A DNA stretch of 64,000 nt from a virus: positions 133,731 to 197,730 of the IMG/VR virus record IMGVR_UViG_3300035137_000026; one strand, given 5' to 3'. The position numbers and the translations under genes are program-made. Of this stretch, positions 19,107 to 27,537 are shown in pieces. The first letter of the stretch is position 1. Each line of letters begins with the position of its first letter. Below the pieces are notes generated by a model. That model searched no databases. It was not told the DNA's origin and worked only from the letters and a program-made list of their open reading frames with translations.

Positions 19107-21209
19107 CTATCTCATCCTTTTCATATTTGTTGCGACAGCCAATGCTTGCTGATAGGCCGTGTGGCTAACATCCTCACGGGGGATGAACTCTACCAGTGTG
19201 CCGTCTTGTACCGTGAGTGTAATCGGGTGAATGTGTCCAGCCTCATTGTCCTCAGTTACTAGCTCAAGATCATTGATAATCACCTTGATGAGTGGTGGAG
19301 AATCATCACTTTCAGGTGCCGTAACCCTAACACTCCCACTAACAATATTGACTGTGTCTTCTTCGAGGCACTTTTCTAGCTTTCTCCACTGTCGGGGGAA
19401 GATGGTTGCTTCCATTCGGCCCGACTTGTCCTCGATGTTGACTACGGCCATGTTCATGCCACTCTTGGTCCTAATCTTTCTGATTGCTGACACAACCACT
19501 GGGATATTGATTGGCATCCCATCTTCAATTCCTTCTCCCTCCTTTAGCGCAGCAACGGTGTGTCGTGCGAGTCTAGAAAGACCAGGGTACTCGTCCATAG
19601 GATGTCCCGTCAAGTAAAATCCTAGCGTCTGACGCTCGAGCGCTAGCCTGTCTTGTCTTGAACCCTCATCTATCTCATTCATCTCCGGTAGTTGTGGCTC
19701 TTCCGGAATTTTGTATGGCTTTGGTTCTTTAAGCCGTTTTGGTTCTCTTCCCTTGGGGTTCTTCTTCCACTTCTTGATTTTCTCGTCTCTTATGCTTTGC
19801 TTTACATCAAAGTCTATCTGGCAGGCCTTCTCCTTCTCCTTGATTTTGGCTACACGTTCTACCCATTTAGGATGTTTCTCATAATACTTATACAGCTCGT
19901 CCAGGTTTTTTACCAGTTGTCCTCTGGAGAATTCTGTTATTTCTCCAAGAGCACCACATGCTGCGAGAGCTTTAACGGTCCCCTTGTTGATCTTCCGTTG
20001 GACCATCTCTTCTAGAGACTTGAATGGCCCGTTGGTGTTCCTCTCTTCCACGAGTGCATCACAAGCTTTTGGTCCTAATCCTTTGATTCCGGCCAGTCCA
20101 AATATTATCGTTCCATTGTTGATGGTGAACATTCCCTCTGAGATATTTACATCAGGTGGCTGGATTGGAATCTCTGCCTCTCTGCAGGCATAGATATACT
20201 TCACCAGATCCTCCTGATCCTTGAAGGATGCATTTAATAAGGCGGTATAGAACTCTGTAGGGTAATGAGTTCTTAGCCATGCTGTCTGGTACGAGATAAT
20301 TGAGTAGGCAACACTGTGACTGTTACAAGTCACAATACCCTGGTCTGTTACGAAGGTATGGTTTGGCGCTGCCATTTCTACATCGTACACATTCTCCTTC
20401 CCGCAGGGTTCTATGCTACGGATGGCTACAGGTTGAGTATACAAACCACGTTCTCCCATCCTAGTCCGCCCCATGGTATAGTATGCTTTCTTATGGCAGG
20501 AGACACAGTACGTTGCGAGATTATCTAGGCTGTTGTTGCTGTGGTTTCTGTCTATGTGATGTATCTCGAGACGCTGGTGTGTATGTTGGCAGCACTTGGC
20601 TTCACATTGGTTGGCCTTCTGGGAATTTAAAGCATATGGTATCAGGTTGCTATTTGAGTGGTGCCTTGGGTCATTAGCGGAACCTTTGTTAGTAAATCTG
20701 TATGTGGTATCTTGAGGTACATGCCCTGAGTTTATGTATAGGCGATCTTTGGGCTTTAGCTCTGCAGTAGTCTTCTCTCCATTAGTGGTCGGAAACTTGT
20801 GGTTCTCAGTGACCACAATACTGCGTCCATCTTCGGTTGTAATTCGGAATACAGATCTGGTACCTGCATATCTAATGTCTACGATTCTATTCTTCCGTAA
20901 CTTGCCGTCTTGACACATAGAGAATGCCGTCCCATATCCATATCGTCTATATCTGTAAGCTAGCGACGGTTTACCAATATTTCTAGCATATTCGGGATCG
21001 TTTGCTAGTTTGTACATCTGTTCGATGGTGGCCCGAAACTTATTTCTCTTCTGATGACCGACACGATATAATGTTTCTTGCCCGCTTATGCATTTGTTGA
21101 AACAATTAGAGGCCACCGACCCGTTATTTAGAACAAAGTTGTGATCAGCCTCAAGGCCAATGTCGAACACTTTCTGTTGGCCGAGGCTCTTACGGCTAAT
21201 AATTTTCAT
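19107..21209 (-). CDS. dnaE: DnaE-type DNA polymerase C-terminal part: Int-C + CFNK + HNH intein + HhH/OB region
   Basis: Spliced sequence CFNK|[46 protein letters not shown]; OB fold [12 protein letters not shown]. Confidence 0.93.
   Translation of the reverse strand: [700 protein letters not shown]
20322..21092 (-). mobile_element. Intein with HNH endonuclease (257 aa) at the FNK|SH site of DnaE
   Basis: Begins [15 protein letters not shown] block B, [26 protein letters not shown] (HNH), ends IVTCN followed by Ser. Confidence 0.9.
21105..21209 (-). mobile_element. Split intein C-fragment (Int-C, 35 aa)
   Basis: [35 protein letters not shown] followed by CFNK; strongly resembles the recalled Npu/Ssp DnaE Int-C. 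Confidence 0.93.

Positions 21210-27537: not shown

Follow-up and report, generated by a model that had tools for sequence, protein, structure and literature searches.

Most protein trans-splicing technology is based on the split-intein family of the cyanobacterial polymerase DnaE, with Ssp (PCC6803) and Npu as reference members, and a split intein without a nuclease is unable to home. The cyanobacterial type has been described as confined to cyanobacteria and as the result of one irreversible break (PMC2677866, PMC7765530). In Synechocystis the genes for its two halves are found at distant loci (PMC2677866, PMC7765530). A second related arrangement are the 'fractured genes' of Dassa et al. 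2009 (PMC2677866), in which a phage-like replication gene is broken by a split intein, the halves are adjacent on one strand and a free-standing GIY-YIG or Vsr-like endonuclease is encoded in the gap. Among them are three phage-like metagenomic DnaE loci, one with an extra intein fragment, but these DnaE split inteins are inserted at different points and share only ~40% similarity with the cyanobacterial type (PMC2677866). Here we describe a DnaE gene in a stretch of 64,000 nt (the window; all coordinates refer to it), which corresponds to bases 133731-197730 of the 197,730-bp IMG/VR record IMGVR_UViG_3300035137_000026. The gene consists of three pieces (A, B and C), and the junction of B and C carries a split intein of the cyanobacterial type. 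No literature report of a phage-encoded split intein of this type was found in a search that fell short of most subscription journals.

The open reading frame (ORF) of piece B ends with ...AGFAKY/CLTYETEVLTVEFG...ATKDHKFLTIDG...AEIL and a stop codon, where the slash marks the start of the N-terminal intein half (Int-N, beginning with CLTYETE). The C-terminal half (Int-C) opens piece C on the same strand at a distance of 3,478 nt. In phmmer searches of the PDB, Int-N matches the entries 4lx3 (E 1.2e-36), 4qfq (E 4.2e-36), 2keq and 4kl5 (both E 3e-35) as well as the Ssp entries 1zd7 and 1zde (E ~2e-29). The same entries are matched by Int-C with E values of 5e-12 to 2e-10, so that, judged by these values, the similarity of both halves is far beyond chance. 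A hand count on the printed alignments gave identities to the Npu chain of ~59% for Int-N (58/99) and ~65% for Int-C (22/34). Higher values of 74-75% were obtained for Int-C against the Int-C of three cyanobacterial loci (L135, L136 and L150) that are discussed below. A single Int-N sequence retrieved no related loci, whereas an alignment query did, and the best 80 matches among 185,579 prokaryote species all come from cyanobacteria. In a sequence look-up within the scan to which the window belongs, look-alikes of this intein came from the genome of the window and from no other.

All residues for splicing are present: Cys1, block B TKDH (ATKDHKF), the Asp and His of block F (VFDIG, DHNF), the terminal Asn, the +1 Cys and the +2 Phe. 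Int-N is acidic (5 Lys/Arg versus 18 Asp/Glu), and the first 15 residues of Int-C include four basic but no acidic ones. According to an alignment with the contig L003 and the cyanobacterial locus L004, the insertion site lies before the CFNKSH motif in the fingers/thumb region, as in the cyanobacterial family, and the same site is bracketed by 80 cyanobacterial loci and by intein-less phage alleles. The natural split coincides with the endonuclease-insertion point, with a stop codon after 103 residues of Int-N and 35 residues of Int-C that start from an ATG with a Shine-Dalgarno sequence (SD). Since Int-C is homologous to Ssp (VKVIGRRSLG) and Npu (KIATRKYLG) from its first residues, the break point is the same.

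By these sequence characteristics it is confirmed that the window element belongs to the cyanobacterial-type (Ssp/Npu) DnaE split-intein family with its FAxY/CFNK site, of which it is a new viral member. With Ssp and Npu it has in common the host protein and site, the split point with an Int-N of ~102 aa and an Int-C of 35-36 aa starting with M-(I/V)-K-I/V, the catalytic residues including +1 Cys and +2 Phe, and the acidic-N/basic-C charge pattern. Identities to the cyanobacterial family are 54-60% for Int-N and 57-75% for Int-C. In contrast to Ssp and Npu, it is encoded by a phage whose DnaE is only 42-43% identical to the cyanobacterial one, a second intein follows four residues into the C-extein, and it falls outside the Nostocales clade to which Npu belongs. 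In contrast to Synechocystis, its halves are collinear, 3.5 kb apart and separated by tail-fibre-like genes. Trans-splicing of the two halves is putative, as we infer it from the family.

An earlier note, made from the sequence alone, had located a 103-aa Int-N after FAKY at the end of a core ORF and a 35-aa Int-C before CFNK at the start of a separate ORF 3.5 kb away, and both assignments are confirmed (Table 1). Its description of the element as nearly identical in pattern to the cyanobacterial intein is correct for site, split point and motifs but not for the sequence, with an Int-N identity of ~59%. It had also stated that described phage split inteins mostly reside in other genes; phage-like ones in DnaE had, however, already been described at other sites (Dassa et al. 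2009, PMC2677866).

Two independent assemblies show the same organization. L003, an NCBI contig, encodes a ribonucleotide reductase (RNR), RecA, a methylase, a NUDIX protein and a dnaE-n that ends in Int-N (69-72% identical to that of the window), followed by tail-spike-like ORFs. In L005, an IMG/VR contig, a dnaE-n ending with FAKY/CLLYDTE... precedes a 424-aa ORF, the C-half and the exonuclease gene. The NUDIX-dnaE-exonuclease synteny and the split are common to L003 and L005. The split layout is not an assembly artefact, since the same junctions are found in all three assemblies. The source record has direct terminal repeats (DTR) and is rated 100% complete, and the neighbourhood of dnaE is a phage replication module with primase/helicase, Cas4-like nuclease, UvsX/RecA and class II RNR. 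No Pfam Phage_sheath_1 match was found in the genome and Terminase_6N gave a weak match only (E 2.3e-4); the assignment to a phage rests on the DTR record, PHROG matches and synteny.

The main evidence for the history of the intein is a discordance between exteins and intein. Exteins were compared over 344 columns from PDLDIDF to FAKY with the inteins removed. The window extein is 78% identical to L003, 60-73% identical to L005, L006, L007, L008, L013, L014 and L017, and 42-44% identical to cyanobacterial DnaE. In the extein tree the nine phage sequences form a clade with a support of 100, and the cyanobacteria form a separate one with a support of 99. The three intein-bearing phage genes are scattered within the phage clade, the window and L003 beside L007, and L005 beside L006 and L008. 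Intein-less phage alleles, among them those of L006, L007 and L013, read ...GFA(K/S/A)Y/SFNKSH..., with Ser where the intein-bearing ones have Cys. Between phages and cyanobacteria Int-N is 54-58% identical and exceeds the extein (42-43%) in every comparison. Within cyanobacteria the order is reversed: in 318 of 325 pairs the extein (mean 78%) shows higher conservation than Int-N (mean 70%), and it is likewise the more conserved part among the three intein-bearing phages. The discordance thus indicates a passage of the intein between the dnaE genes of phages and cyanobacteria. At the sequence level this shows that the split intein was neither inherited with the polymerase nor part of a captured host gene, but was exchanged horizontally, and that a supposedly 'immobile' split intein passed between very different dnaE genes. 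In this respect the earlier note was right to regard the locus as informative about intein transfer.

Phylogenies of intein and extein, as proposed in that note, were both calculated. For Int-N, trees of 88 and 39 rows were built from 102 columns with IQ-TREE and a site-heterogeneous model. In these trees the family, to which the window belongs, is set apart from a second viral allele type (see below) with 100/100 support. The window and L003 group together (93-96% support) and stand with L005 and L203, a phage-like contig described below, in an unresolved comb with non-heterocystous cyanobacteria. The window intein lies outside a Nostocales clade (86/94) that includes the Nostoc sequences. 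From this basal position outside Nostocales we conclude that the phage intein is a distinct lineage of the family and no close relative of Npu. The proposed assignment to the Npu lineage therefore holds for the Npu/Ssp family and the common Y/CFNK site, but not for the Nostocales branch.

As a whole, the locus is best explained by a DnaE made of three polypeptides, in which B and C are joined by a horizontally acquired split intein of the cyanobacterial type; we estimate the probability of this explanation at roughly 0.8. Pieces A, B and C would be translated separately, each from its own SD, and two further inteins within B and C, a LAGLIDADG and an HNH cis-intein, would excise themselves. 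Int-N, with its acidic charge, and Int-C, with its basic N-terminus, would combine into one HINT fold. Ligation of the exteins would follow in four steps (acyl shift at C1, transesterification to C+1, Asn cyclisation and S-N shift) and would yield an 844-residue B-C chain (436 + 408) with the junction ...FAKY-CFNK.... A free-standing LAGLIDADG cassette would have interrupted the gene immediately ahead of the catalytic PDLDIDF, leaving decayed overlaps at both ends, and piece A (409 aa) would dock non-covalently and thereby complete the PHP-palm region. For the earlier course of events we assume an exchange of the split intein between phage and cyanobacterial dnaE, most plausibly as a cassette of Int-N, LAGLIDADG homing endonuclease gene (HEG) and Int-C. 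In the phage clade of the window, tail-fibre-like genes would then have taken the place of the nuclease.

Several points weigh against this explanation or parts of it. The intein tree, with its ~100 columns and unresolved backbone, does not show in which direction transfers went or how many there were. The HNH intein, four residues off the junction, gives the Int-C precursor an unusual C-flank, which might affect the order or the efficiency of splicing. In a tblastn search with the HEG of the family no relic of it was detected in the gap of the window, L003 or L005, so that the cassette route is deduced from other lineages. The lengths of the insertions between A and B in the window and in the phage locus L006 (1,034 and 1,096 nt) are not multiples of 3 and would also fit an intron. 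A group I intron or another relevant Rfam match was detected neither at E<=1 on 14 kb nor at E<=10 on 1.2 kb, with the limit that a covariance model can miss ORF-bearing introns.

The strongest rival concerns the A/B break, where a self-splicing group I intron with a LAGLIDADG ORF would make A and B one polypeptide and dnaE a two-piece gene. Compared with the continuous gene of L003, the window carries its insertion between ...YFERFL and PDLDIDF, and that of L006 is found at the same position. Each of the two insertions contains a LAGLIDADG gene with two motifs, which is read in the same frame as piece A. In the window a stop-to-stop ORF covers 27435-28133 (LAGLIDADG_3, E 2.2e-11), and an in-frame TGA at 28134-28136 interrupts a zinc-ribbon-like CxxC...YCS-stop-SC motif. 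No ATG, GTG or TTG occurs between 28133 and 27854, i.e. upstream of the first LAGLIDADG motif, and together with the TGA this suggests that the gene is probably dead (a pseudogene). The TGA could be a nonsense mutation or a site of read-through. In L006 the gene (L006:8100-8939) is intact and encodes a 265-aa helix-turn-helix (HTH)-LAGLIDADG protein. Homologues of the window gene are the HEGs of L006, L135 and L203. An intron would agree with the insertion at a highly conserved catalytic site, with the insertion lengths, with the HEG ORF in the frame of the upstream exon, and with one U/...G boundary pair that would preserve the reading frame; in addition, LAGLIDADG genes are classically intron- or intein-borne.

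The sequences at the broken ends argue against an intron, and so does the lack of an Rfam group I match on 1.2 kb with a threshold as lenient as E 10. The head of piece B, encoded by the 276 nt that precede the would-be 3' splice site, is a decayed copy of a native DnaE segment (~aa 300-396) whose counterpart is already encoded in piece A. The head is collinear with contiguous DnaEs at 123 bits, compared with a mean of 114 and a maximum of 121 for shuffled sequences, so that none of 500 shuffles reaches the value and the gain is ~9 bits. Matches to native DnaE include TEIYRQRI versus TEEYRQRV and NSAVAYVIKATDCKP versus GSLVCYCLRITEIDP. The duplicate emerges only as a collinear extension from the anchored extein; BLASTP against P0002, Pfam and a small local HMM against shuffles gave no support for it. 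The heads of the window and L006 are alike as proteins (E 2e-5, z ~6.8) but not at the DNA level, and in both the start ATG is preceded by AGGA or GGAG with the same spacing as in piece C. Furthermore, native sequence in piece A ends with ...YFERFL (28317-29465). The next 26 residues, GVGRAQRPIIDFEELPKAEFDKFYKP (28239-28316), precede TAA and form a tail (RAQRPIIDF) that is a degenerate duplicate of the first residues of B (RMASPDLDI). Therefore, we regard an intron as unlikely. Instead, the A/B break probably arose when a nuclease cassette interrupted the gene and a short stretch was duplicated, of which the redundant copies have since decayed, so that A and B would be separate proteins. The decayed overlapping copies at both ends make it most likely that piece A docks non-covalently. 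A split intein or dead-intein clasp at the A/B break was rejected as well, as the head gave no HINT or intein Pfam match (E<=10) and there is no +1 Cys, Ser or Thr with a preceding HN. In the B piece of L006 we noticed LCDIDVDF, with Cys for Pro before the catalytic aspartates.

A comparable case of 'genes in pieces' for the A/B break is nrdA of the Aeromonas phage Aeh1 (cited in PMC2677866). This gene is reportedly split by the free-standing HNH-type endonuclease gene mobE, and the two separately translated fragments are said to assemble non-covalently. In both systems a free-standing homing-endonuclease gene resides inside an essential replication-related gene. The window differs from Aeh1 in that the endonuclease is of the LAGLIDADG type, the break is located just before the catalytic aspartates, and decayed overlapping copies flank it on both sides.

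Much less probable than an intron at the A/B break is a splicing-dead Int-N/Int-C pair that only clamps the polymerase fragments together non-covalently. The second intein four residues downstream could indeed hinder splicing. However, none of the residues for the four splicing steps has been lost, nor have the +1 Cys and +2 Phe, and the +1 Cys occurs in all three intein-bearing phages where the intein-less relatives have Ser, just as selection for splicing predicts. A captured cyanobacterial dnaE-n/dnaE-c pair or a cyanobacterial or chimeric contig can practically be dismissed, and with them the refuting scenarios of the earlier note, a cyanobacterial chromosome or a misassembly: among cellular organisms the intein has its nearest relatives exclusively in cyanobacteria, but the phage extein clade already refutes a capture, the exteins being 60-78% identical to phage DnaEs versus 42-44% to cyanobacterial ones, and the record is a closed DTR virus genome with the same layout and junctions in L003 and L005.

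How an intein of this type could have moved is suggested by nuclease-bearing relatives. A genome scan revealed three cyanobacterial loci in which dnaE-c follows dnaE-n on the same strand at a distance of 0.6-2.2 kb, namely L135:1943-6349 (a metagenome-assembled genome (MAG) of Gloeobacterales), L136:99-3679 (a Chamaesiphon MAG) and L150:1943-8100 (filamentous cyanobacterium CCP2). In L135 and L136 the distance is 0.6-0.8 kb. The gap of L135 is filled exactly by a 259-aa LAGLIDADG gene (Pfam E 1.5e-12), which extends from two bases after the Int-N stop codon to an overlap with the Int-C start. L136 contains a decayed copy of the same type of gene, and L150 an ORF without assigned function and a Dam methylase. 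By Int-N identity these loci are not the closest to the phages and thus do not identify the donor. The contig L203, found with a representative search for Int-N, is 7 kb long and phage-like, with uracil-DNA glycosylase, small ORFs and metallophosphatase. It encodes a PHP-less DnaE (L203:1576-5342) with the same intein type, whose Int-N shares 57% of its residues with the window and up to 65% with cyanobacteria, and its exteins show only 34-36% identity to both cyanobacterial DnaE and the clade of the window. Between its halves lies a 272-aa HTH-LAGLIDADG gene that is 38% identical to the L135 nuclease (E 2e-55).

The unit of Int-N, LAGLIDADG gene and Int-C is therefore present in at least two unrelated dnaE backgrounds and, without the nuclease, in a third (the window), which fits homing of the whole cassette. 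Such homing is a plausible vehicle, inferred here from gene order and homology. Going further, we tentatively propose, without giving it even odds, that the cyanobacterial DnaE split intein in its canonical form constitutes, or once constituted, a mobile fractured-gene cassette, which had been split before it passed between phage and cyanobacteria during infection. The phage copies with their adjacent collinear halves, and the deeper viral allele type at the same site, whose gap likewise contains fibre genes, would then be near the ancestral state of the dispersed arrangement. The cyanobacterial intein may have come from phages. The nuclease-bearing adjacent forms from Gloeobacterales, Chamaesiphon and the phage-like contig offer a concrete route for its spread and for the origin of the break. 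For this fractured-gene form, a LAGLIDADG gene between cyanobacterial dnaE halves, no report was found in the literature search, which was restricted as mentioned above.

For applications, phage members with ~55-60% identity widen the natural sequence space for engineering and for tests of orthogonality or cross-reactivity. From its sequence, use of the window intein as a protein-ligation tool is plausible, as the earlier note had suggested; its further idea of cross-splicing with DnaE halves of the host is pure speculation.

The complete gene (Table 1) is encoded by the minus strand and flanked by a NUDIX gene (29645-30289) and the gene for a DNA-polymerase exonuclease subunit (18155-19102; phrog_403, E 1e-55), and it is the only DnaE genome-wide. 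Upstream of each piece there is an SD, a strong GAGGA for A and AGGA for both B and C. Piece A matches Pfam PHP (E 1.7e-50) and positions 2-106 of the DNA_pol3_alpha profile and is 78-79% identical to the continuous L003 gene. For the remainder of the C-extein, Pfam HHH_6 (E 3.7e-21) and the tRNA_anti-codon OB domain were found, with identities of 42-51% to the C-terminal parts of related phage DnaEs. In the inventory of the earlier note, the third dnaE piece, both cis-inteins and the tail-fibre-like gap genes were missing. Thus, its core ORF does carry Int-N but is preceded by piece A at 28236-29465, and its C-piece does start with Int-C/CFNK but continues with a second intein after CFNK.

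Table 1. Features of the dnaE locus in the window, listed in the direction of transcription.
Feature	Position	Strand	Length	Remarks
Piece A	28236-29465	minus	409 aa	PHP domain and first part of palm
LAGLIDADG homing-endonuclease gene	27435-28223	minus		free-standing, double-motif; between A and B, in frame of piece A
Piece B (ORF)	24685-27537	minus	950 aa	palm from PDLDIDF, fingers, LAGLIDADG cis-intein, terminal Int-N
Head of piece B	27262-27537	minus	92 aa	N-terminal; decayed copy of native DnaE segment ~aa 300-396
Piece B exteins	24997-27261 (26440-27261 + 24997-25206)	minus		palm from catalytic PDLDIDF, fingers; Pfam DNA_pol3_alpha, DNA_pol3_finger
LAGLIDADG cis-intein	25207-26439	minus	411 aa	Pfam LAGLIDADG_3, Hint_2
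Int-N	24688-24996	minus	103 aa	end of piece-B ORF; stop codon 24685-24687
ORF227 and ORF915	21230-24662	minus		two genes separating dnaE halves B and C
ORF227	23979-24662	minus		N-terminus MPYKYNPFSKELDY; no family match
ORF915	21230-23977	minus		Pfam CBM_4_9; phrog_5939 tail protein, E 7.5e-24
Piece C (ORF)	19107-21209	minus	700 aa	Int-C, CFNK, HNH cis-intein, rest of C-extein
Int-C	21105-21209	minus	35 aa	start of piece-C ORF; C-extein CFNK at 21093-21104
HNH cis-intein	20322-21092	minus	257 aa	CFNK/CISGQ...
C-extein remainder	19107-20321	minus		SHSVAY...; HhH and OB domains, stop codon

The LAGLIDADG cis-intein of piece B has the boundaries YGVM/CLPAG...VVSHN/CFQEQ and a weak HINT match to gp41-1. 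It is an in-frame insertion of 1,233 nt that has no counterpart in L003, and its site is occupied in L007. The HNH cis-intein, which starts four residues past the split-intein junction, matches Pfam Intein_splicing (E 2.3e-9), HNH and HNH_3 as well as HINT structures in the PDB. Its site is empty in L005 and occupied in L016, L023 and L032. The locus is a compact natural example of a polymerase with four selfish insertions, and just four residues separate two of its inteins.

The gap between the halves (21210-24687) yielded no LAGLIDADG, HNH or GIY-YIG match in Pfam, so that the HEG between the halves, by which fractured genes are defined, is absent here. In contrast to the loci of Dassa et al. 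(PMC2677866), the gap holds tail-fibre-like genes without an endonuclease relic, and the LAGLIDADG-bearing form of the cyanobacterial-type intein occurs in L135, L136 and L203 but not in the window. According to their predicted products, the gap genes are tail-fibre-like and do not encode a homing endonuclease. They differ among the phages, yet all are virion-fibre-like; the gap of L003 contains an ORF of 1092 aa that matches a family of tail spikes (E 2e-10). The second viral allele type (L009-L012; FADY/CLAG...) occupies the same DnaE site, with 33-37% identity to the window in Int-N and 56% in Int-C. In L009 (8912-20146) the two halves of this allele are separated by 8.4 kb of sequence with a gene for a collagen-like tail fibre (E 6e-150), and in L010-L012 the N-part is further broken into two frames ~1.3 kb apart. 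ORF227 and the gap ORFs of L003 (L003:14530-) and L005 (L005:3153-4427) have the N-terminus M(P/T)YKYN(P/T)F..LD(Y/F) in common, and one further copy was found elsewhere in the genome of the window phage (C1:26548-26592). Apart from this motif the gap genes are unrelated, and it may represent a common anchor of exchangeable fibre proteins.

Further observations were made during the searches. The representative-sequence match P0015 was set aside, as it is an artificial GFP-Ssp DnaE-mCherry construct. P0020 and P0022 consist of an Npu-like Int-N after a very short non-DnaE N-terminus (MELSKEDKLSPSEF/CLSYDTEV...), followed by an unrelated helical C-terminal region, and may be orphan or re-used Int-N domains. 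Many DnaE genes retrieved from IMG/VR with the extein query are split between different reading frames or interrupted by stops, at positions other than here (L023, L030, L032, L049, L050, L052, L063, L075 and L077); fragmented DnaE is common among uncultured phages.

The replication module of the window is heavily invaded by selfish elements. Its class II RNR (35664-39134, 1156 aa) contains a LAGLIDADG intein (Intein_splicing, LAGLIDADG_3, Hom_end), and the ThyX gene (6622-9432) encodes 936 aa compared with the usual ~220-250 aa and carries at least one LAGLIDADG-containing insertion. Near the genome end, three tRNA genes (His-GTG, Pro-TGG and Asn-GTT) are located on the minus strand at 61851-62652.

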